Shown: one piece after another, positions 27,111-64,000 of the stretch
Layout: every line of letters begins with the position of its first letter
Position numbering within the stretch: the first letter of the stretch is position 1
Source of the DNA: Heterodontus francisci
Lineage: Eukaryota
Length of the DNA: 64,000 nt
Direction: 5' to 3'
Assembly (NCBI RefSeq): GCF_036365525.1
Contig: NC_090392.1
Span: 75,036,345 to 75,100,344 of the forward strand
Notes under the pieces: generated by a model
The model's input: only the letters and a program-made list of their open reading frames with translations
Told to the model about the DNA's origin: nothing
Databases searched by the model: none
Made by a program: the position numbers and the translations under genes

Positions 27111-27289
27111 CTGAACCCGAGACACCACACTTGTCGTGTCTCCCACCCGCCCTCCTCCTCTAACCAAAAAAAAAAGGACTCGGTGGGGTGTTTATAAGGT
27201 AAGGCATTTTCGATTTCTCTGGTTTTATTGTGATTGGTAAAAACTTTTCGTTCCTTTTTCATTTAACTAAGTTAAACTTAAGATTAAAA

Positions 27290-28237
27290 ATGGCAGGAGA
27301 TCTCAGGCCCGTGTCATGCTCCTCTTGCTCAATGTGGGAGCTCAGGGACATGACTGATGTCCCTGACTCCTTCACGTGCAGGAAGTGTGTCCAACTGCAG
27401 CTCTTGTTAGACCGCATGACGGCTCTCGAGCTGCGGATGGACTCACTTTGGAGCATGCGCGATGCTGAGGAGGTCGTGGATAGCACGTTTAGTGAATTGG
27501 TCACACCGCAGATTAGGATTGCTGAGGGAGAAAGGGAATGGGTGACCAAAAGGCAGAGAAAGAGCAGGAAGGCAGCGCAGGAGTCCCCTGCGGTCATCTC
27601 CCTCCAAAACAAGTATACCGTTTTGGATACTGTTGAGGGAGATGGCTCACCAGGGGAAGGCAGCAGTAGCCAGGTCCATGGCACCGTGGCTGGCTCTGCT
27701 GTTCAGAAGGGCGGGAAAAAGAGTGGAAGGGCTATAGTCGTAGGGGATTCGATTGTAGGGGGAGTAGATAGGCGGTTCTGTGGTCGAAAACGAGGCTCCC
27801 GAATGGTATGTTGCCTCCCAGGTGCACGGGTCAGGGATGTCTCAGATCGGCTGCAGAACATTCTAAAGGGGGAGGGTGAACAGCCAGTTGTCATTGTGCA
27901 CATAGGCACTAATGATATAGGTAAAAAACGGGATGAGGTCCTACAAGCAGAGTTTAGGGAGTTAGGAGCCAAGTTAAAAAGTAGGACCTCAGAGGTAGTA
28001 ATCTCAGGATTACTACCAGTGCCACGTGATAGTCAGAGTAAAAATGAAAGAATAGTCAGGATAAATGCGTGGCTTGAGAGATGGTGCAGGAAGGAGGGGT
28101 TCAGATTTTTGGGACATTGGGACCGGTTCTGGGGGAGGTGGGACTATTACAAATTGGACGGTCTACACCTGGGCCGGACTGGAACCAATGTCCTTGGAGG
28201 TGCTTTTGCTAACGCTGTTGGGGAGGGTTTAAACTAA
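27290..28237 (+). CDS. CR1 ORF1p: zinc finger/leucine zipper plus SGNH/GDSL esterase
   Basis: CSSCSMW..CRKC zinc finger, heptad leucines, VVGDSIV, HIGTND, DGLH; ATG at 27290 (ORF track starts at GTG 27230). Confidence 0.93.
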   Translation: MAGDLRPVSCSSCSMWELRDMTDVPDSFTCRKCVQLQLLLDRMTALELRMDSLWSMRDAEEVVDSTFSELVTPQIRIAEGEREWVTKRQRKSRKAAQESPAVISLQNKYTVLDTVEGDGSPGEGSSSQVHGTVAGSAVQKGGKKSGRAIVVGDSIVGGVDRRFCGRKRGSRMVCCLPGARVRDVSDRLQNILKGEGEQPVVIVHIGTNDIGKKRDEVLQAEFRELGAKLKSRTSEVVISGLLPVPRDSQSKNERIVRINAWLERWCRKEGFRFLGHWDRFWGRWDYYKLDGLHLGRTGTNVLGGAFANAVGEGLN

Positions 28238-31191
28238 TGTGGCAGGGGGATGGGAACCAATTGAGGTCAGTTGACAGTAAAGAGGTAGTAACAAAAGCCT
28301 GTAAGGAACTAGATAATGAAGTCAGTGTGACTAAGGGGAAGAGCAGGCAGGGAGCAGATGATGAATATAAAGGGACTGGTGGTCTGAGGTGCATTTGTTT
28401 TAATGCAAGAAGTGTAGTTGGTAAGGCAGATGAACTTAGGGCTTGGATTAGTACCTGGGAGTATGATGTTATTGCTATTACTGAGACTTGGTTGAGGGAA
28501 GGGCATGATTGGCAACTAAATATCCCAGGATATCGATGCTTCAGGCGGGATAGAGAGGGAGGTAAAAGGGGTGGAGGAGTTGCATTACTGGTCAAAGAGG
28601 ATATCACAGCTGTGCTGAAGGAGGGCACTATGGAGGACTCGAGCAGTGAGGCAATATGGACAGAACTCAGAAATAGGAAGGGTGCGGTAACAATGTTGGG
28701 GCTGTACTACAGGCCTCCCAACAGCGAGCGTGAGATAGAGGTACAAATATGTAAACAGATTATGGAAAGATGTAGGAGCAACAGGGTGGTGGTGATAGGA
28801 GATTTTAATTTTCCCAACATTGACTGGGATTCGCTTAGTGTTAGAGGTCCAGATGGAGCAGAATTTGTAAGGAGCATCCAGGAGGGTTTTCTAGAGCAGT
28901 ATGTAAATAGTCCAACTCGGGAAGGGGCCATACTGGACCTGGTGTTGGGGAATGAGCCCGGCCAGGTTGTTGAAGTTTCAGTAGGGGACTACTTTGGGAA
29001 TAGTGATCACAATTCCGTAAGCTTTAAAATACTCATGGACAAAGACGAGAGTGGTCCTAAAGGAAGAGTGCTAAATTGGGGGAAGGCCAACTATACCAAA
29101 ATTCGGCAGGAGCTGGGAAATGTAGATTGGGAGCAGCTGTTTGAAGGTAAATCCACATGTGATATGTGGGAGGCTTTTAAAGAGAGGTTGATTAGCGTGC
29201 AGGAGAGACATGTTCCTGTGAAAATGAGGGATAGAAATGGCAAGATTAGGGAACCATGGATGACAGGTGAAATTGTGAGAGTAGCTAAGAGGAAAAAGGA
29301 AGCATACATAAGGTCTAGGCGGCTGATGAAAGACGAAGCTTTGAAAGAATATCAGGAATGTAGGACCAATCTGAAACGAGGAATTAAGAGGGCTAAAAGG
29401 GGTCATGAAATATCTTTAGCAAACAGGGTTAAGGAAAATCCCAAAGCCTTTTATTCATATATAAGGAGAAAGAGGGTAACTAGAGAAAGGATTGGCCCAC
29501 TAAAGGACAAAGGAGGAATGTTATGCTTGGACTCAGAGAAAATGGGTGAGATTCTAAACGAGTACTTTGCATCGGTATTCACCGAGGAGAGGGACATAAC
29601 GGATGTTGAGGTTAGGAACAGATGTTTGATTACTCTAGGTCAAGTCGGCATAAGGAGGGAGGAAGTGTTGGGTATTCTAAAGGGCATTAAGGTGGACAAG
29701 TCCCCAGGTCCAGATGGGATCTATCCCAGGTTACTGAGGGAAGCAAGAGAGGAAATAGCTGGGGCCTTAAAAGATATCTTTGCAGCATCCTTAAACACGG
29801 GTGAGGTCCCGGAGGACTGGAGAATTGCTAATGTTGTCCCCTTGTTTAAGAAGGGTAGCAGGGATAATCCAGGTAATTATAGACCAGTGAGCCTGACGTC
29901 AGTGGTAGGGAAGCTGCTGGAGAAGATACTGAGGGATAGGATCTATTCCCATTTGGAAGAAAATGGGCTCATCAGTGATAGGTAACATGGTTTTGTGCAG
30001 GGAAGGTCATGTCTTACCAACTTAATAGAATTCTTTGAGGAAGTGACAAAGTTGATTGATGAGGGAAGGGCTGTAGATGTCATATACATGGACTTCAGTA
30101 AGGCGTTTGATAAGGTTCCCCATGGCAGGCTGATGGAGAAAGTGAAGGCGCTTGGGGTCCAAGGTGTACTAGCGAGATGGATAAAGAACTGGCTGGGCAA
30201 CAGGAGACAGAGAGTAGCAGCAGAAGGGAGTTTCTCAAAATGGAGACGTGTGACCAGTGGTGTTCCACAGGGATCCGTGCTGGGACCACTGTTGTTTGTG
30301 ATATACATAAATGATTTGGAGGAAAATATAGGTGGTCTGATTAGCAAGTTTGCAGATGACACTAAGATTGGTGGAGTAGCAGATAGTGAAGGGGACTGTC
30401 AGAGAATACAGCAGAATATAGATAGATTGGAGAGTTGGGCAGAGAAATGGCAGATAGAGTTCAATCAGGGCAAATGCGAGGTGATGCATTTTGGAAGATC
30501 CAATTCAAGAGTGAACTATACAGTAAATGGAAAAGTCCTGGGGAAAATTGATGTCCAGAGAGATTTGGGTGTTCAGGTCCACTGTTCCCTGAAGGTGACA
30601 ACGCAGGTAAATAGAGTGGTCAAGAAGGCATACGGCATGCTTTCCTTCATCGGACGGGGCATTGAGTACAAGAGTTGGCAGGTCATGTTACAGTTGTATA
30701 GGACTTTGGTTCGGCCACATTTGGAATACTGCGTACAGTTCTGGTCGCCACATTATCAAAAGGGTGTGGATGCTTTGGAGAGGGTGCAGAGGAGGTTCAC
30801 CAGGATGTTGCCTGGTATGGAGGGCGCCAGCTATGAGGAGAGGTTGAGTAGATTAGGATTATTTTCATTAGAAAGACGGAGGTTGAGGGGGGACCTGATT
30901 GAGGTGTACAAAATCATGAGAGGTATAGACAGGGTGGATAGCAAGAGGCTTTTTCCCAGAGTGGGGGTTTCAATTACTAGAGGACACGAGTTCAAAGTGA
31001 AAGGGGAAAAGTTTAGGGGGGATATGCGTGGAAAGTTCTTTACGCAGAGGGTGTTGGGCACCTGGAACGCATTGCCAGTGGAGGTGGTAGATGCGGGCAC
31101 GATGGAGTCTTTTAAGATGTATCTAGACAGATACATGAATGGGCAGGAAGAAAAGAGATACAGAACCTTAGAAAATAGGCGACATGTTTAG
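28237..31191 (+). pseudogene. CR1 ORF2 (AP endonuclease + reverse transcriptase) with one premature stop
   Basis: FNARS, ITETW, GDFN, SDHN (APE); QGSVLGP, FADD (RT); in-frame TAA at 29983-29985 replacing Q of DR-Q-HGF. Confidence 0.95.
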
Positions 31192-39875: not shown

Positions 39876-41680
39876 GGATGAGCTGGACATACAGCCAACC
39901 AAATCGGAACTCAGTGATGCCATTGATTCCCTAGCCAGCGGAAAAGCCCCTGGGAAGGACAGCATTACCCCTGAAATAATCAAGAGTGCCAAGCCTGCTA
40001 TACTCTCAGCACTACATGAACTGCTATGCCTGTGCTGGGACGAGGGAGCAGTACCCCAGGACATGCGCGATGCCAATATCATCACCCTCTATAAAACAAA
40101 GGTGACCGCGGTGACTGCAACAACTACAGTGGAATCTCCCTGCTCAGCATAGTGGGGAAAGTCTTTGCTCGAGTCGCTCTGAACAGGCTCCAGAAGCTGG
40201 CCGAGCGCGTCTACCCTGAGGCACAGTGTGGCTTTCGTGCAGAGAGATCGACCATTGACATGCTGTTCTCCCTTCGTCAGATACAGGAGAAATGCCGTGA
40301 ACAACAGATGCCCCTCTACATTGCTTTCATTGATCTCACCAAAGCCTTTGACCTCGTCAGCAGACGTGGTCTCTTCAGACTACTAGAAAAGATCGGATGT
40401 CCACCAAAGCTACTAAGTATCATCACCTCATTCCATGACAATATGAAAGGCACAATTCAACATGGTGGCTCCTCATCAGAGCCCTTTCCTATCCTGAGTG
40501 GTGTGAAACAGGGCTGTGTTCTCGCACCCACACTTTTTGGGATTTTCTTCTCCCTGCTGCTTTCACATGCGTTCAAATCCTCTGAAGAAGGAATTTTCCT
40601 CCACACAAGATCAGGGGGCAGGTTGTTCAACCTTGCCCGTCTAAGAGCGAAGTCCAAAGTACGGAAAGTCCTCATCAGAGAACTCCTCTTTGCTGACGAT
40701 GCTGCTTTAACATCTCACACTGAAGAGTGCCTGCAGAGTCTCATCGACAGGTTTGCGGCTGCCTGCAATGAATTTGGCCTAAACATCAGCCTCAAGAAAA
40801 CGAACATCATGGGGCAGGAGGTCAGAAATGCTCCATCCATCAATATTGGCGACCACGCTCTGGAAGTGGTTCAAGAGTTCACCTACCTAGGCTCAACTAT
40901 CACCAGTAACCTGTCTCTAGATGCAGAAATCAACAAGCGCATGGGTAAGGCTTCCACTGCTATGTCCAGACTGGCCAAGAGAGTGTGGGAAAATGGCGCA
41001 CTGACACGGAACACAAAAGTCCGAGTGTATCAGGCCTGTGTCCTCAGTACCTTGCTCTACGGCAGCGAGGCCTGGACAACGTATGCCAGCCAAGAGCGAC
41101 GTCTCAATTCATTCCATCTTCGCTGCCTTCGGAGAATACTTGGCATCAGGTGGCAGGACTATATCTCCAACACAGAAGTCCTTGAAGTGGCCAACACCCC
41201 CAGCTTATACACACTACTGAGTCAGCGGCGCTTGAGATGGCTTGGCCATGTGAGCCGCATGGAAGATGGCAGGATCCCCAAGGACACATTGTACAGCGAG
41301 CTCGCCACTGGTATCAGACCCACCGGCCGTCCATGTCTCCGCTATAAAGACGTCTGCAAACGCGACATGAAATCGTGTGACATTGATCACAAGTCGTGGG
41401 AGTCAGTTGCCAGCATTCGCCAGAGTTGGCGGGCAGCCATAAAGACAGGGCTAAATTGTGGCGAGTCGAAGAGACTTAGTAGTTGGCAGGAAAAAAGACA
41501 GAGGCGCAAGGGGAGAGCCAACTGTGCAACAGCCCCGACAAACAAATTTCTCTGCAGCACCTGTGGAAGAGCCTGTCACTCCAGAATTGGCCTTTATAGC
41601 CACTCCAGGCGCTGCTTCACAAACCACTGACCACCTCCAGGCGCGTATCCATTGTCTCTCGAGATAAGGAGGCCCAAAAA
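39876..41680 (+). mobile_element. 5'-truncated RTE-clade LINE
   Basis: RT motifs FIDLTKAFD, GVKQGCVLAP, LLFADD; C-terminal Cys/His finger CSTCGRACHSRIGLYSHSRRC; 1-bp deletion near 40095. Confidence 0.95.
40152..41630 (+). pseudogene. RTE reverse transcriptase (partial ORF)
   Basis: 492-aa open frame nearly identical to the C-terminal part of 54346-56103. Confidence 0.9.
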
Positions 41681-52360: not shown

Positions 52361-52921
52361 CACCATCCTACACCTGTGTAGGGGCCCCAACAACCCCACT
52401 GCCTTGTGGGCGTCTCGGGAGAGACCAAGGCTAAGGGAGTAAACCCTAATAGAAAATCCGGAGCGGAACCCCGTAGGCGGTCATGTGTCACCTTTGGCAT
52501 GTTTCCGGCTGTTCCTGCAGCCATACTGGTGCCAAACGTCGTGTCCTGCACTCCTTTGGACCCCACCAGAAAGGCCGAGAGGGGGGTTTTGACGACTGGG
52601 CAACTCTCAACCTCCATAAATTTGCCCAGGCATGCGCCATGGAGAGGTCACTCCATAGTTGCCTCACAGCGACTAAAACAACATGGAAGGCAGCAGTTAC
52701 GGGTTATAAGTCCAGATAAATTGGCGTAGAAACTGGGCGCCACGGGTTGCCTTTGTCGGTGGGAGAGGTCATTGCACCTCACTGGACAGCTACCGCCCGC
52801 CTCAAACCGGGCAGCCCCCGGTCAATAAGGTTCTGTCCCGCCACAGTCTGCCTGCTTCAATGGGTGCTTGGAGCTCAGGGTCATTGCCCGAAAGGTGGAC
52901 TGACACACCGCACCAAACAAC

Positions 52922-55900
52922 ATGAAAAAAGGAAAGAAGGTACCAGCCCTTCGCTTTGCAAGCTGGAACGTCAGAACTATGTGTCCTGGCCTGTCGGAAG
53001 ACCTTACACAAATCAACGATTCTCGGAAGACCGCCATCATTAACAACGAGCTCAGTAGATTCAATGTGGACATTGCAGCACTTCAGGAGACCCGCCTCCC
53101 CGCGAGTGGCTCTCCAGCAGAGCAAGACTACACCTTCTTCTGGCAGGGCAGGGATCCTGAAGAACCAAGACAGCATGGAGTGGGCTTCGCCATCAGAAAC
53201 TCCTTGCTCAGCATGATAGAGCCTCCCTCAAATGGCTCGGAACGCATACTGTCCATCCGACTGCTCACCACCTCTGGTCCAGTACACCTACTCAGCATCT
53301 ATGCTCCAACACTCTGCTCCCTACCTGAAGCTAAAGACCAGTTCTATGAACAACTCCATAACATCATTAGCAGCATCCCCAACACCGAACACCTATTCCT
53401 GCTGGGGGACTTTAATGCCAGGGTTGGGGCCGACCATGACTCATGGCCCTCCTGCCTTGGGCGCTATGGCGTTGGAAGGATGAATGAGAACGGGCAGAGA
53501 CTGCTTGAGTTGTGTACCTATCATAACCTCTGCATCACCAACTCGTTCTTTCACACTAAACCCTGTCACCAGGTTTCATGGAGGCACCCAAGATCACGTC
53601 GTTGGCACCAGCTAGACCTCATTGTCACAAGGCGAGCCGCCTTAAACAGTGTTCAAATCACACGCAGCTTCCACAGTGCGGACTGCGACACCGACCACTC
53701 CCTGGTGTGCAACAAGGTTAGACTCAGACCAAAGAAGTTGCATCATTCCAAGCAGAAGGGCCACCCGCGCATCAACACGAGCAGAATTTCTCACCCACAG
53801 CTGTTACAAAAATTTCTAAATTCACTTGTAACAGCCCTTCAAAACACTCCCACAGGGGATGCTGAGACCAAGTGGGCCCACATCAGAGACGCCATCTATG
53901 AGTCAGCTTTGACCACCTACGGCAAAAGTGCGAAGAGAAATGCAGACTGGTTTCAATCTCATAATGAAGAGCTGGAACCTGTCATAGCCGCTAAGCGCAT
54001 TGCACTGTTGAACTACAAGAAAGCCCCCAGCGATTTAACATCCGCAGCACTTAAAGCAGCCAGAAGTACTGCACAAAGAACAGCCAGGCGCTGCGCAAAC
54101 GACTACTGGCAACACCTATGCAGTCATATTCAGCTGGCCTCAGACACCGGAAACATCAGAGGAATGTATGATGGCATGAAGAGAGCTCTTGGGCCAACCA
54201 TCAAGAAGATCGCCCCCCTCAAATCTAAATCGGGGGACATAATCACTGACCAACGCAAACAGATGGACCGCTGGGTTGAGCACTACCAAGAACTGTACTC
54301 CAGGGAGAATGCTGTCACTGAGACTGCCCTCAATGCAGCCCAGTCATGGATGAGCTGGACATACAGCCAACCAAATCGGAACTCAGTGATGCCATTGATT
54401 CCCTAGCCAGCGGAAAAGCCCCTGGGAAGGACAGCATTACCCCTGAAATAATCAAGAGTGCCAAGCCTGCTATACTCTCAGCACTACATGAACTGCTATG
54501 CCTGTGCTGGGACGAGGGAGCAGTACCCCAGGACATGCGCAATGCCAACATCATCACCCTCTATAAAAACAAAGGTGACCGCGGTGACTGCAACAACTAC
54601 CGTGGAATCTCCCTGCTCAGCATAGTGAGGAAAGTCTTTGCTCGAGTCGCTCTGAACAGGCTCCAGAAGCTGGCCGAGCGCGTCTACCCTGAGGCACAGT
54701 GTGGCTTTCGTGCAGAGAGATCGACCATTGACATGCTGTTCTCCCTTCGTCAGATACAGGAGAAATGCCGTGAACAACAGATGCCCCTCTGCATTGCTTT
54801 CATTGATCTCACCAAAGCCTTTGACCTCGTCAGCAGACGTGGTCTCTTCAGACTACTAGAAAAGATCGGATGTCCACCAAAGCTACTAAGTATCATCACC
54901 TCATTCCATGACAATATGAAAGGCACAATTCAACATGGTGGCTCCTCATCAGAGCCCTTTCCTATCCTGAGTAGTGTGAAACAGGGCTGTGTTCTCGCAC
55001 CCACACTTTTTGGGATTTTCTTCTCCCTGCTGCTTTCACATGCGTTCAAATCCTCTGAAGATGGAATTTTCCTCCACACAAGATCAGGGGGCAGGTTGTT
55101 CAACCTTGCCCGTCTAAGAGCGAAGTCCAAAGTATGGAAAGTCCTCATCAGAGAACTCCTCTTTGCTGACGATGCTGCTTTAACATCTCACACTGAAGAG
55201 TGCCTGCAGAGTCTCATCGACAGGTTTGCGTCTGCCTGCAATGAATTTGGCCTAACCATCAGCCTCAAGAAAACGAACATCATGGGGCAGGACGTCAGAA
55301 ATGCTCCATCCATCAATATTGGCGACCACGCTCTGGAAGTGGTTCAAGAGTTCACCTACCTAGGCTCAACTATCACCAGTAACCTGTCTCCAGATGCAGA
55401 AATCAACAAGCGCATGGGTAAGGCTTCCACTGCTATGTCCAGACTGGCCAAGAGAGTGTGGGAAAATGGCACACTGACACGGAACACAAAAGTCCGAGTG
55501 TATCAGGCCTGTGTCCTCAGTACCTTGCTCTACGGCAGCGAGGCCTGGACAACGTATGCCAACCAAGAGCGACGTCTCAATTCATTCCATCTTCGCTGCC
55601 TTCGGAGAATACTTGGCATCAGGTGGCAGGACTATATCTCCAACACAGAAGTCCTTGAAGTGGCCAACACCCCCAGCTTATACACACTACTGAGTCAGCG
55701 GCGCTTGAGATGGCTTGGCCATGTGAGCCGCATGGAAGATGGCAGGATCCCCAAAGACACATTGTCCAGCGAGCTCGCCACTGGTATCAGACCCACCGGC
55801 CGTCCATGTCTCCACTATAAAGACGTCTGCAAACGCGACATGAAATCGTGTGACATTGATCACAAGTCGTGGGAGTCAGTTGCCAGCATTCGCCAGAGTT

Positions 55901-56103
55901 GGCGGGCAGCCATAAAGACAGGGCTAAATTGTGGCGAGTCGAAGAGACTTAGTAGTTGGCAGGAAAAAAGACAGAGGCGCAAGGGGAGAGCCAACTGTGC
56001 AACAGCCCCGACAAACAAATTTCTCTGCAGCACCTGTGGAAGAGCCTGTCACTCCAGAATTGGCCTTTATAGCCACTCCAGGCGCTGCTTCACAAACCAC
56101 TGA
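52922..56103 (+). pseudogene. RTE ORF (AP endonuclease + RT + C-terminal zinc finger), one frameshift
   Basis: ASWNVRT, AALQETR, LGDFNA, TDH (52922-54406 frame); RT and Cys/His finger in the 54346-56103 frame. Confidence 0.95.
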
Positions 56104-57600: not shown

Positions 57601-58880
57601 ACAGATACTGTAATGCCCTAAACTCTAGGTTCTATTACTTTTTTTTGCCAATATTCTCCCCTTGCCTCTTCTCATGATGGACTGAAGCCCTTAGGGGCAC
57701 CAGAGTATTTGCAAAAACTAGTCATTGCACTTTTGAGACATGGGTAAGGCACTGTAGAAATGCAAGGCTGTCTTTCAGTCATTGCTGGTTACTATTCATG
57801 TGCTCTCCTTGAAGGTGAATGTTTGTGAGATGTTAGAATATGACAAGCATCACAATAGTCCTCCTCTCCCTTGGGAGAGGACGATCAGTCAGTGGTCCTG
57901 ATCACTGCTGCTGTGTCCACGGATGACTATAAATAAGAGATTTTAGAAGGAGTCATTTCAAAAGTGCTCAGGCCTCTCCCTAGGGCACTGTGGCTAACAG
58001 TAACATCCCGAACAGTGCAGTTACATTTTGCATTTTGCCTGCCATTCTGCAGGTTTGGTTTAAGTTCTGAAAAGCACATTAAATGCACAGCATTATCTGC
58101 AGTGTCAGGGGACCTTGGGGGATAATTTCTTCCATCAACAGTTTCATTCCTTGTTACTGATTTATTGTCTTTAAGGCAAAGAGCTGCTCCAATGAACATC
58201 TCAATTTTTGTATGTTTGCACTTCCTCTCTGTGTAATAAGATACTCTCCTGACTCGTTTCACTGAACTTCGAGAGCTGTGAATCTACCAAAAGGCCAAAT
58301 TCATTAAAATATCTTGCTTTTGACTTTGTGCTGGATGATAGAATATTGTGCCCGCTCTTTAAACAGCAAGTAACGATGTCTTATTTTCAGTGAAGGCTTT
58401 CTGTTTACTGGCTAAATTAGATCTCCCCAATGGATCAGTAAGTGAATGCACTGCCAGGGTCCAAACAAACCAGCATGATTCACTGATCTTTGCCGAGTTG
58501 GCTGAACTCAGCAAGGGTGGTATTTTGCTGCAATTGACCTTAGCGTTTCCTAGGCTAAAGGAGGATTAACAAGGGTTCTGCTTCTGGTTATTAATCGGTG
58601 ATCCCTGTTGGAGATGTTTGCTTTGAGGACAGAGTCAGGTTCAGCTCTGGTGCCTCTCTCATGGTCAAACAACCTTGCTGGCATTTACTGTCCAGGTTCA
58701 CCAATGAAATTTGGCTACTTGAGTGAACTTTTTTACTGGTTAGCCCGGCATCTGTCATGTTGAAACCTGTCACCATATTTAAGAGAGTGATTGGAAATAT
58801 AGAGTTTCTGTTTTTGTCTGCTAAATGTAAGCCCAAGGAGTTTAGGTTGACATCCAAGGCTTAGGGAACCCCCAGGTGCA

Positions 58881-58904
58881 TGGCAGGGGAAGAAACCATG
58901 ATTA
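58881..58904 (+). pseudogene. U1 snRNA 5' fragment (nt ~10-32) at the Tx1 5' junction
   Basis: TGGCAGGGGAaGAaACCATGATtA vs U1 UGGCAGGGGAGAUACCAUGAUCA: 21 of 23 identical plus a 1-nt insertion. Confidence 0.72.
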
Positions 58905-58942
58905 GTGGCCTTTGATCCTGTTACAGGTATGTTTAGAGTAAA

Positions 58943-60484
58943 ATGGCTCTTACCAATTCTAGAGCTTCAGACCAGGGAATGCATAACACCCTTTGGGTGG
59001 TGGTGAAGGATAAGGAAGGAGGTGCACTGGTTGACCGTACCTTCTTCATCAAGAAAACCCATATTGATTGCTGTTGATTCCAAGCTGCGGACATCTTCTG
59101 CCTGCAGGACTTCTCCAGCAGTGGATATTTCATCGTGACGTTCAAGAACGTGGCGGGATGCATCAAGTTCCTGAAGGTGTTCAAGGAGAAGAGAAACCAG
59201 GCACCGCTGTCGATGCTCACAGTGGAGCCACTCTTCACGCTGCCGTCGCAATGTGATCGGGTGGTGACAATTCACTTCTATAACCCGCATGTTCCTGTCG
59301 TGGATGTACTCACCTTCCTTGCTAGGTACATCAAGGTGGCCAGCAGCAGCACTGATGTCAAGGACATATTTGGGATTTGGACCAGCAAGCGGCATGTCAA
59401 GGTGACCTTGAAGGTCAATGCCAACGGAGCCATCATCCATCCTCCTTCCAGCTTTGGGGGAAGTCGAGGCTTCTTGGTCTATGCGGGGCAGCCCAGAGTT
59501 TGTTGCACCTGTGGCAAATCTGGTCACGTGGCAGCTAACTGCAGCACAGTCATCTGCAAGAACTGCAAGAAGCAAGGCCATCAGACCAAGGACTGTAAGC
59601 AGAGTAAGTGCTGCAACCTGTGCGGTGCGGCAGGCCACCTCTACAAAACCTGCGCCAAACGCTGCCTCAGTTCTGCAGAGGCGGCAAGGTCCAAGGAAAG
59701 GCCGGGAGAAGGAACAGTGAATGCATCTGGTGCTGGGAAGGAGACAAGCAACCTTCTCCGCAGCGAGGAAAGTCTACCTGAGAAGGAGAAGAAAGGTGAG
59801 GCAGCTGCAACCAATGACCCAACACCTACCCCATGCCTGGAAATCCCTCCTCTGCAGACAGAATCGATGGAGGAGGAGGCAGCAGATGGACAAACTGGTC
59901 AGTGGCAAGTGGTATAAAGGAAAACCACAAAGAGAAAACCTCCAAAAAAGGAACATGCCACCACCCAAACCAGTGGCAAGAGGAGGCTACCGTCTGAGAC
60001 AGACTACAGCAGCTCCTCTTCATTGGACGAGGAAGGGCCGGAACGACAGCACCTGCAAAAAAAGCGACAGAACTCAAAGGAGCTGGACGATAAAGCCCCC
60101 CAGCTCCAGGGCACTGGAAGCTGTGATGGTCCCAGCACACCCCAAAACCAAAGCGCCGAACCTAGCAACATGCCCAGCGCATCCCAGCTCCGGGACACCG
60201 AGAACAAAGAAACGTCTGGCGCACTCCAGCTCCAGAAAGCCGGGAGCAGTGATGTCTTCGAGGAGGAACAGAGGGGAAAGACACCATCAGCAAAGGACAG
60301 CCCAAGCTTTGCTGCCTACAAGACCCCCCCCAATGTCATCCCAGCAGAACAAGCCCCCCATGAAAAACCAGAAGGGGTTTCTGAGCCCACAAATGTAAAA
60401 CAGCTTGTGCACACCATGGGTATGCAGGAACATAACCAGGGACTGGGGCTAGCAAGGACATCTGGTGTGGGAAGCAACAACTAA
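58943..60484 (+). pseudogene. Tx1 ORF1 (gag-like, ZCCHC3-related, three zinc knuckles), frameshifted
   Basis: CTCGKSGHVAANC, CKNCKKQGHQTKDC, CNLCGAAGHLYKTC; pieces 59135-59917 and 60023-60484. Confidence 0.9.
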
Positions 60485-60491
60485 CTTAAAA

Positions 60492-63400
60492 ATGGATAGA
60501 AAGATTGCTTCAATTAACGTGTGTAGCATTAAATCCACTACGCGATGTGTTTCAACCTTGGATTACCTCGCCAAGGTCAAAGCCGACCTGATGACAGCAA
60601 ACTGGACGCTACGTCCAGATTCCTAATAGAAACAGTAAAAGATGCCAAGCTGCACAATGTCTTCAGCAAACCTGCAGACGGAGCGCAGCGTAGATACAAC
60701 TGGTCAAGATCGGACGGGTCTACCCATTCCAGGATTGACTTCCTGTTTGTGTCCCGTGCTGTCACGGTCAGATCCACTGACGCCAAGCCGGTGTTCTTCT
60801 CTGACCATTGCCTCTTACTGGCCGACTGTCACTTACAGGATGACCAGTGGGTTGGCAGGGGGACATGGAAGCTCAGTGCTACACTGAGAACGTTGAGGAA
60901 CTCAAAAGTGATTACAAAGGTTGGTGAACTGTGAAGCCCCTCTTTTTGTCTCCAGTTCACTGGTGGGAGGTGATCAAGGAGAACATCAAGAGGTTCTTTA
61001 TCTTCAAAGGTGTTCAGAGGGAGAGAGAGAGACAGAGGGAAATGTCCCAACTCCAGAAAAGAATGCAAAATCTGCTCCGGCTGCGGTCGATGGGGGTCGA
61101 GGTCAAGGAGGATCTCCAAAATGTGAAGGGCCAGCAGGCCTCACTCTTTGCCATGGGGCCTCCAAGATCATCTTCCAGTTCAGTGCCGCTCCGTTGAGCA
61201 GGATGAGACGTGCTCGAATTACTTCTTCCAAAAGGTACACAGAGAGCTCTGTGATCAGCAGCCTGAAGGAAGAAGATGGCTCGGTAACATCTTCGCAGTC
61301 TGACATACTAAGGATCAGCAAATCCTTTTATGCTGGGCTGTACGACGTGAAGCCCAAGGACAGCATGACTTCCCAGTCCTTCCTGTCACTATCACGGAGG
61401 TCTTATATGACAGCATGAGGGAGAGATTGGACAAACCGCTAACTCTGGACGAGCTGACAAACGCCGTCAGGTCCTTCGAGACGAGTAAAACTCCTGGAAG
61501 CAACAGCTTACCGGTGGAGTTGTATTCGGCTCTGTGGGACTGGGTCGTCCCAGACCTACTGGAAGTATACGAGAGTATGCTTCTGGCCGGCAGCATGTCA
61601 GAATCCATGAGGAAAGGCATCATCACCCTCATCTACAAGCGGAAGGGGGAGAGGGCGGAAATCAGAAATTGGCGGCCAATCTCACTGCTTAATGTTGACT
61701 ACAAGATTCTGTCCAAAGTCATCGCCAGTCGGGTCAAGTCTGCTCTGGAGATGGTGATTCACCCTGACCAGACCTGCACTGTACCCGGCAGGAAGATCGC
61801 TGATAGTCTTGTGCTACTCAGGGATACGATTGTCTATGTACGGGACAGGAGGGTGGACACCTGCCTCATCAGCTTGGACCAGGAGAAGGCTTTTGACGGG
61901 ATATCGCACACCTACATGATGGACCTGCTTTCCAAAATGGGTTTTGGGGAGGGAATCTGCAATTGGATCAAACTGCTCTACGCAAACATCAGTAGTACAG
62001 TCTCAGTCAATGGGTGGGAATCAGAAGGTTTCCTGATCCAATCTGGAGTCAGACAGGGCTGTCCTCTCTCCCCTGTCTTGTTTGTTTGCTGTATTGAACC
62101 CTTTGCTGAGTCTATTAGGAAGGATGCGGGCATAAGAGGGGTGACAATCCCAGGCAGTGGAGGCACTTAGGTAAAAACCTCCCTGTACATGGGCGATGTC
62201 GCCGTCTTCTGCTCGGATCTGCTGTCCATGCGCAGACTGATGAGCATCTGCAACCAGTTCAAACTGGCCTCGGGAGCCAAAGTCAACCACGGCAAGAGTG
62301 AGGCCATGTTCTTTGGGAACTGGGCTGACCGATCCTTTGTCCCCTTCACCGTCAGGTCAGATTACCTGGGGAAGGGCTGGGACATGTGCCAAAACCTGGA
62401 AGAAACGAGTAGCCAGGGTACACCATAAACTGAGCATGTGGGAGCAACGATCTCTCTCTATTGTGGGTAAGAACCCGGTCATCAGGCGCGAGGCACTTAC
62501 GTTGTTGCTGTACGTGGCGCAGGTCTGGCCCATACCCCACTCCTGCGCCCTGACGGTCACCCAAGCCATTTTCCACTTTATCTGGAGATCCAAAATGGAC
62601 CGGGTCCGGAAGAACACGATGTTCAAACCTCTGGATAAGGGCGGGAAAAATGTACTCAACGTCGCCCTTATCCTGATGACTACCTTTGTGTGCGGCTGCA
62701 TCAAGCTGTGTGTAGAGCCCCGGTACGCAAACACCAGGTGTCACTACCTGCTGTGGTTCTATCTATCCCCGGTGTTGTGAAGGATGAGTCTGGTCACATT
62801 GCCGCGGAATGCTCCATCCAGTTGGGCCGTGCCGTACCACCTATCCTTCATGGGAAAGTTTATGCGGGAAAACACCTTTGACCACCAATCCGTCAGGCAG
62901 TGGTCTGCATGGAATCGCCTCAAGGCCCTACGGGAAATGAAGATGGTGGATCCTGTTGGATGGTTCCCCGAGCAGACTGCCAAAGTCATTTGGCAGAATG
63001 CCTCATCACCAGAACGTTCAAACAAGCACCAAGACTTAGCTTGGCTGGTGGTGAGAAGGGCCCTCCCCATCAGATCCTTCCTGCACACCTGGAATCTCGC
63101 CACCTCCACACACTGCCCTTGAGGTGGCTGCGGTGGGGAAGAGACAGTTGCCCATCTCCTTCTGGAACATGTCTTTGCAAAGCAGGTGTGGAAAGAGATG
63201 CAGTGGTTTTTGTCGAGGTTCATCCCAAGCAGCTCTGTAACACAGGAGTCTGTGATCTACGGGCTGTTACCAGGGACGCACACCGAGATAAACATAAGCT
63301 GCTGCTGGTGGACCATAAATTCAGCGAAAGATGCTCTTTGGTCTGCCCGAAACTTGCTGGTCTTTCAGCGCAAAGAGCTGTCCACGACCGAGTGTTGCAG

Positions 63401-63497
63401 GCTGGCACATTCCAAAGTCCAGGACTACATGCTGAGTGACGCATTAAAGCTTGGGGCAGCAGCTGCGAAGGCTCAATGGGGAAAGACCACTGTTTAA
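60492..63497 (+). pseudogene. Tx1 ORF2 (APE-RT), multiple frameshifts/stops and an internal deletion in the endonuclease
   Basis: KIASINV, SRIDF, FSDH, NWRPISLLNVDYKILSK, LDQEKAFD, GVRQGCPLSP, YMGD. Confidence 0.92.
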
Positions 63498-64000
63498 GGT
63501 CCTCCCACCATAGTGAACTGAGGGGCTGGACCTATGGGAAACCCGTTGGGCTGTATACACCAAATATGGGTTTGCTGTAAAATGTACCTGGCAGGTAAAA
63601 TGGAATGGAAGGGTTGTGGAGCAACTCACTCCTGTATTGAAGAAAACTGATTTCCTTTGCACTTTTTGGAATGTCAACTTGGTGATGTTATGAACTGTTT
63701 TTTAATGTATCTTTTACAGATTTTTATGAATAAAGTATATGTTGGGGGAAAAAAAACCCAGGTGCATGCAGAAAGCATTGCTAGAACCAGGCAGCCTTCC
63801 AACAAAGTCCTGGAAAATTTCCCACTGCTTGTCCATCTCGGACTACCCTACATAGAATTTATGAGACAAAGCAGGCCATTCGGCCCAACAGCTACATGCT
63901 GTTTATGCAGTGTGTGAAGGGCAGGTGAGGGCAAGGTAATTCTTTGCTGTGAGGCTGCTGCTGTGGAATAGCTTGCCATGCTCACCGCCTCTGCTCAAAA

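Follow-up and report, generated by a model that had tools for sequence, protein, structure and literature searches.

The LINE found in the window (the whole 64,000-nt stretch of Heterodontus francisci DNA that was analysed) is a dead copy, lying off target, of a Keno-type Tx1 family that inserts before nt 39 of U2 and nt 40 of U1 snRNA genes. The short U1-derived sequence at its 5' end is likely the leader of a transcript that began at the U1 promoter of the gene in which its source copy lay.

Results and Discussion

The window element is a dead Tx1-type LINE with a U1-derived 5' end

The element itself spans 58883-63756 and, as the original prediction stated, is bounded by a 12-bp target-site duplication (TSD) with flanks that are not U1 (Table 1). 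Both ORFs are broken and the copy is dead; in ORF2, aa 35-142 are deleted near 60589, and there are frameshifts and stops in addition. The window ORF1 is 73% identical to the intact 508-aa ORF1 of a young copy, L177, and the window ORF2 is about 80% identical to its intact 1135-aa ORF2. Pfam placed both ORFs with Tx1-type LINEs, finding the RT in one of the ORF2 pieces, and the element has the features of that clade, with RNA-binding domains and CCHC knuckles in ORF1, an AP endonuclease (APE), RT and zinc domain in ORF2, an A tail and a TSD. The nearest named matches are amphibian proteins (55-57% over the RT region), and homologs include the Danio 'transposon TX1 149 kDa protein' (47% over the RT region) and Takifugu BAD04856.1 (38% over ORF2), which may be a Keno element.

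In an alignment of positions 58881-58904 to nt 10-32 of the same genome's own U1, 21 bases agree, 2 differ and one extra A is present, in agreement with the 21/23 plus one insertion originally reported. The first two bases of this head, TG, are common to the TSD, leaving U1 12-32 as its unambiguous part. It is the top local match to U1 10-32 within the window (score 34 versus 24 for the runner-up). An Rfam scan of the window region returned no U1 match, the piece being so short, and no ribozyme. The ORF1 ATG lies 38 nt past the end of the head, close to the ~40 nt first estimated. The window head is a 5'-truncated form of the family head, which comprises U1 1-32, and the young subfamily has an upstream ORF of equal length, five codons.

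Table 1. Features of the window element and its target-site duplication
Feature	Position	Strand	Remarks
5' target-site duplication, 12 bp, CCCAGGTGCATG	58871..58882	+	identical to 63757-63768
U1 snRNA-derived head, U1 nt 10-32, AAGAAACC variant	58881..58904	+	first 2 nt common with the TSD
Putative 5-codon upstream ORF	58898..58915	+	ATG within U1 (nt 26-28), TGA end; read from sequence
Segment complementary to U1 head	58905..58931	+	in full-length copies, predicted to form a hairpin that covers U1 nt 3-11
ORF1	58943..60484	+	ZCCHC3-type RNA-binding domains, CCHC knuckles; stops interrupt frame
ORF2	60492..63497	+	AP endonuclease, RT, zf-RVT; broken
3' UTR	63498..63756	+	AATAAA at 63729-63734; 8-nt A tail
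3' target-site duplication, 12 bp, CCCAGGTGCATG	63757..63768	+	identical to 58871-58882

The snRNA head is shared across the family

We searched the 6.0-Gb genome with the 5' 318 nt of the element and obtained 2218 candidates, of which 40 were scored. The head was found in 30/30 loci fetched with a 5' end, at unrelated sites, with 11 of the 30 representing one duplicated locus. In 46 copies the match to U1 begins at +1 and runs on into the element, against 0 for a control. The flanks of dispersed copies are unrelated to one another. A one-off U1-Tx1 chimera, which had been offered as the alternative, or a chance match at the window locus might be suspected of a match that covers only 23 nt and is not called by Rfam, but a head that is family-wide and reaches U1 +1 in 46 copies led us to reject this explanation, to which we assign a negligible probability. 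The head belongs permanently to the element and consists of U1 1-32 and a segment complementary to U1 1-32.

A pattern covering the start of ORF1 had 1069 genome matches, 100 of which were listed. Among the first 30, an snRNA head starting within nt 1-12 was present in 29/30 copies, with 14/15 old copies beginning at U1 nt 1-12 and 15/15 young copies at U2 nt 1-11. The old copies, which are like the window's, are about 90% alike; those of the young subfamily are 98.5% alike, have both ORFs (508 and 1135 aa) intact and, at dispersed sites, carry U2 to nt 53 ahead of a decayed U1 head. Dispersed, off-target copies bear snRNA leaders, as originally proposed.

The heads also vary. Among the 46 copies starting at +1, roughly every second one shows the exact modern form of U1; counted by eye, exact-U1 heads make up about half of an unselected list too, so that the +1 copies are no richer in them. 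Hundreds of copies share a variant head that is absent from every current U1 gene (2 matches, both on elements). Only in L146 and L192 is the AAGAAACC variant of the window copy continued by U1 33-50, a continuation pointing to a lost U1 variant gene as the probable donor. In L192/L305 and L117, U1 leaders extend to nt 51-52 and are followed by the standard head, and in L146 a leader to about nt 50 precedes it. Leaders end at nt 51-55, and not at nt ~32 as had been supposed. L103 and L113 are old, U1-intact types beneath a U2 leader, so U2 was used by old types too. A divergent type with a long 5' UTR (L064, L070, L102, L103) shares the head plus GTGGCCTTTGATCCTG. We also considered whether the segment following the U1 head is a relic U2 leader, and rejected this idea, as the similarity was significant only with very cheap gaps (9, 371 and 936 of 5000).

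Full-length copies lie behind U2 promoters and seed 3' transductions

The element tail joined to U2 gave 251 matches (control, 0), and 94 of the 100 listed were on C41. These junctions are those of the young lineage, the window copy itself being off-target; at the family level, the 3' junction lies at U2 nt 38/39 with the flank TCTGTTCTTATCAGTTTAAT, which is the published Keno target (PMC6136364, PMC4640811). Together with the domains, this junction supports the assignment to a Tx1/Keno-type lineage made in the original prediction. Among mapped array junctions, 14/26 were at nt 38/39 and the remainder at 33-35, 48 and 58. In the 120 kb of U2 array examined, the unit is 577 bp; the promoter end was matched for 49 U2 genes, 28 of them intact and 21 interrupted. 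Ten of the 21 hold a full-length copy, arranged as promoter, U2 1-53, element and the remainder of U2; the 1-53 leader was present in 10/10 of these copies, and both ORFs were intact in 8/10.

Beyond C41, all of the listed U2 junctions (6/6) lacked an upstream U2 leader and had downstream U2 or array DNA, namely U2 38-130, 37-159, 38-214 or longer array pieces. In the copy on C1, a 16-bp TSD (2 mismatches) encloses the element, an A stretch, U2 38-130 and a further A stretch, and on C14 a short TSD surrounds the element and transduced U2. By their structure, these copies are 3' transductions for which array copies act as sources, because the six junctions carry downstream U2 without a leader and the C1 TSD encloses the whole. 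The U2 +1 starts of dispersed young copies and the 3' U2 are what would be expected as the DNA record of U2-promoter transcripts.

The family also inserts in U1 genes

A pattern joining the tail to U1 from nt 34 had 0 matches in the genome, being too long for a site at nt 40/41, and one joining it to U1 from nt 42 had 173 (control, 0). The 173 junctions reduce to five independent loci, every one joined at nt 40/41: an amplified locus, C41:6.05, C41:8.63, C41:8.97 and C13:28.02 Mb. Of the 100 junctions listed, 97 look like the one amplified locus, which has a decayed U1 promoter (5 inspected). The original prediction was therefore right that the family inserts in U1 genes, but the site is nt 40/41, not nt ~32, and the main present-day target is the Keno site in U2.

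At C41:6.05 Mb, a U1 promoter is followed by U1 1-54, U2 3-53, a decayed U1 head, the full element twice and U1 40-164; that is, two full young copies lie within a real U1 gene. None of the 46 copies starting at U1 +1 has U1 promoter sequence upstream, and exact patterns, which would miss most copies diverged by ~10%, found 0 old-type full-length copies behind a U1 promoter in the genome. An exact pattern for modern-U1 double heads, with the same tendency to miss most copies about 10% diverged, also found none. We found no dispersed copies with the U1+U2 leader of the U1-resident pair, as the 2 matches were the C41:6.05 locus itself. At C13:28.02 Mb, an old-type tail (89% to the window copy, 74% to young copies) is joined to U1 40-164 and a second A tail, with no TSD, promoter or U1 5' part at the locus; the element may have entered a processed U1 pseudogene here.

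Common to the U1 and U2 sites are an upstream GATCAAG and a downstream GTTCT..CAG, and their distances from the start site are nearly equal. The likeness of off-target sites to the U1 and U2 targets did not exceed that of shuffles (13 old and 11 young sites, with automatic TSD calls, a few of them doubtful). Because dispersed sites appear to resemble neither target, sequence recognition and tethering are indistinguishable here.

U1 leaders preceded U2 leaders

We built a tree from 84 ORF1 5' regions, leaving out 15 of 99 loci that were too short or duplicate, and labeled heads by simple patterns. The young clade (support 100) falls within a wider set of U1-headed copies. Its sister is L113, which has a U2 leader and an intact U1 head (support 99), and L060 comes next (95). 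Since the young, U2-led clade is nested among U1-headed copies, the U1-led state came first. Head variants required 17 changes on the tree compared with 27.6 if shuffled, indicating that they are partly inherited, though not as clean clades. The old radiation is star-like and dispersed, and the window copy falls in this star-like group; on this placement it belongs to the older U1-headed radiation.

Origin of the U1 head

We propose that a copy inside an snRNA gene would be transcribed from the promoter, which for snRNA genes is external (PMC5493778, PMC4494074), producing an RNA that consists of a leader, reaching nt ~50-55 where the TSD ends, and the element. Many products would land at unrelated sites, keeping the leader and not the promoter, and would be dead ends; re-insertion into another snRNA gene would add a new leader in front and so create stacked heads. 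The sources of the old radiation would have been U1-resident and would since have been lost from U1 clusters; deletion or homologous 5' joining would have reduced their double U1 head to U1 1-32. The lineage would later have moved mainly to U2, with 5' UTR pairing changing from the U1 leader to the U2 leader. For the window's old subfamily, the U1 1-51 leaders and the old tail joined to U1 40-164 make an origin from a U1 promoter reasonably likely. The co-transcription originally suggested is in keeping with copies found directly behind snRNA promoters, but for this old subfamily it is only inferred. Poly(A) signals tend not to be used in transcripts from U1 promoters (PMC2241894), which makes a 5.3-kb A-tailed RNA of this origin a nontrivial product. 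Part of the young element was present in 14 of 17 listed sequencing runs, in every case as contigs, from which transcript starts cannot be read.

The heads could instead have arisen by recurrent template switching, the route that Kojima proposed for SINEU heads (PMC4494074). Sources would always lie in U2 genes, U1 snRNA would pair with CAGGTAGGT, a splice-site-like stretch of the 5' UTR, and the RT would jump onto this RNA within the shared nt 1-32, so that most old copies end at U1 +1. Such switching would fit the U1-intact types beneath a U2 leader in L103 and L113, the frequent changes of head type on the tree, the exact modern U1 form of about half of the 46 +1 copies, and the presence of the splice-site-like motif in old copies but not in young ones, which keep their U2 leaders. 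However, a switch would be needed in nearly every event (14/15 old copies), the +1 copies are no richer in exact-U1 heads than the unselected list is (about half in both, by eye), and the variant head common to hundreds of copies is absent from current U1 genes. Moreover, there are real insertions at U1 nt 40, and these yield the same leaders directly. We therefore consider template switching unlikely.

We give still less credence to a U1 head that was gained once as a fixed 5' end, with dispersed old copies being self-sufficient, whether through a promoter (internal or downstream) or through processing of their RNA at the hairpin base, and with U1 insertions as incidental secondary hits. The star-like, dispersed old radiation is consistent with this, as are the sharing of the head plus GTGGCCTTTGATCCTG with the divergent long-5'UTR type and the failure to find a U1-resident old source among the 46 +1 copies and by exact-pattern searches. 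But the element-specific 5' UTR is only about 40 nt, U1 leaders to nt 51 recur, the closest living relative is demonstrably behind external snRNA promoters, and PMC4494074 reports no internal snRNA promoter. Transcription from the U1 promoter of a resident source copy is thus the explanation that we favor.

Relation to known elements

Keno is a Tx1-clade, APE-type LINE specific for U2 snRNA genes (PMC4494074, PMC4640811, PMC6136364), and the present family resembles it in having two ORFs, APE and RT, the same U2 3' flank (nt 39 onward) and residence in U2 arrays. Unlike Keno, it is not strictly U2-specific, as it also inserts in U1 at nt 40/41 and has hundreds of copies at unrelated sites bearing an snRNA leader, and it has a U1-derived 5' end of its own. 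In the list of PMC4640811, the sole U1-targeting element is Dada-U1, a DNA transposon. We found no report of LINE insertion in U1 genes in the openly accessible papers searched; U1-headed Tx1 elements, by contrast, have already been published for crocodilians.

Those crocodilian Tx1-Mar elements, the partners of SINEU, have heads from U1 (Tx1-2_Crp, Tx1-2B_Crp, Tx1-4_AMi) or U2 (Tx1-11_Crp), as is the case here, cluster with Keno and show recurrent stacking of U1/U2 5' pieces; the U1/U2 junction of SINEU-2, at nt 53-58, is near the leader ends of the present family (PMC4494074). Their target, however, is Mariner-N4_AMi, and their heads were ascribed to template switching, with transcription left open (PMC4494074), whereas the copies described here were caught inside U1 and U2 genes behind promoters and their stacking probably reflects nested insertion. 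Chimeric U6/U1-L1 retrocopies likewise have a 5' snRNA piece fused to a LINE inside one TSD, but these are sporadic and involve truncated L1 (PMC4494074). In the present family the head is found at a fixed junction in nearly every full-length copy, and not sporadically at variable LINE junctions as in template-switch chimeras. R2, in 28S rDNA, has no promoter of its own and is read from the host gene, leaving target-derived 5' sequence on its RNA (PMC4494074), as we infer for this family; R2 differs in its RLE, Pol I transcription and self-cleaving ribozyme, versus APE, a Pol II snRNA promoter and, by Rfam in the window region, no ribozyme.

How snRNA-headed elements without an internal promoter are transcribed is a question left open in Kojima 2015 (PMC4494074). 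One genome here holds every stage of one route: intact sources behind U2 and U1 promoters, off-target copies with a leader, 3' transductions, a head stacked three deep and, dated by the tree, a switch from U1 to U2. The element is apparently active, making the promoter question directly testable, and it offers an APE-type LINE that reaches two multicopy targets and what would be a natural case of a 5.3-kb coding RNA made from an snRNA promoter.

A 5' UTR segment complementary to the snRNA head

A broader hypothesis is possible, though we hold it only tentatively. What guides the family to Pol II snRNA genes may be position more than the sequence preference of its endonuclease: a site about +39/+40 from the start site, reached through RNA pairing or through the machinery that transcribes snRNA. 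Its host promoter would have switched from U1 to U2, and its 5' UTR would have been re-tuned to a hairpin masking the borrowed leader, covering first the U1 splice-site arm and then the U2 branch-point arm. Nested insertion, and not template switching, might then be the general origin of snRNA heads, including those of SINEU.

Leader masking by such a hairpin is at present a lead, not a result, and comes from predicted folds. In old full-length copies, the 30 nt past U1 nt 32 complement the head, with 13, 15 and 52 of 5000 shuffles equaling the score and the L067 fold matched by 1 of 2000; this segment of the window copy also resembles a 5' splice site. U1 nt 3-11 are predicted to be paired at >0.7 in 33/44 copies, compared with 0.04 in native U1. 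Single folds were mixed: z-scores were -2.86 (L008), -2.19 and -1.17, with a weak -1.22 for the truncated window copy. In the young subfamily, the head-complementary segment is degraded and the splice-site-like motif present in old copies is lost. Relative to the old U1 head the young subfamily has 8 substitutions, and every one of them pairs with the U2 leader, 6 improving the pairing and 2 weakening it to G-U; in a post hoc test, 4 and 13 of 3000 random substitution sets paired likewise. Judged on folding energy only, the anti-U2 hairpin did not stand out, as it was equaled by 226 and 246 of 4000 random sets (about 6%).

Tandem, possibly template-switched and divergent element copies

Head-to-tail tandems are common among the dispersed copies of the Keno-type Tx1 element (5 of the 30 in the sample from contig C1). 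In these tandems, the A tail of one copy is followed, after 0-20 nt, by a full-length head. Some of the spacers are the TSD itself, and one tandem (locus L076) has no spacer at all. These spacer types suggest either that a further element inserted at the same nick or that end-to-end template jumps occurred.

Four loci (L064, L070, L102, and L103) hold a divergent type that shares U1 nt 1-32 and the next ~16 nt with the family, but has a longer and different 5' UTR; L103 additionally bears a U2 leader. The young-type copy L187 (C4:82.30 Mb), with near-intact ORFs, starts with a short U1-like head in place of the U2 leader, making it a candidate for a single template switch.

Duplicated insertions, U2 gene classes and U1 retrocopies

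A single old full-length insertion has identical flanks at 11 of the places fetched (L012-L022), which indicates that it was amplified within another repeat. At L264-L291, truncated insertions sit in a U1 gene that has decayed; this gene lies inside a larger duplicated unit, and appears to have been amplified along with it to roughly 170 copies. The U2 loci on contig C41 fall into two classes with unrelated upstream sequences, L193-L200 and L201-L222; insertions in C41 U2 genes were mapped in the 577-bp tandem class. We also found eight dispersed U1 retrocopies lacking a promoter (L293-L300), of which L295 has the AGAAAC variant also present in element heads.

Locations of other LINE remnants in the window and of tandem and duplicated loci in the genome
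Feature	Location	Description
LINE remnant	27203-31191	Esterase-type ORF1, endonuclease and RT
LINE remnant	40095-41630	One RT frame
LINE remnant	52904-56103	Endonuclease and RT element
Head-to-tail tandems	L121-L131, L135, L145-L147, L152, L168	
Decayed U1 gene, L264-L291	C35, C28, C39, C50 and unplaced contigs
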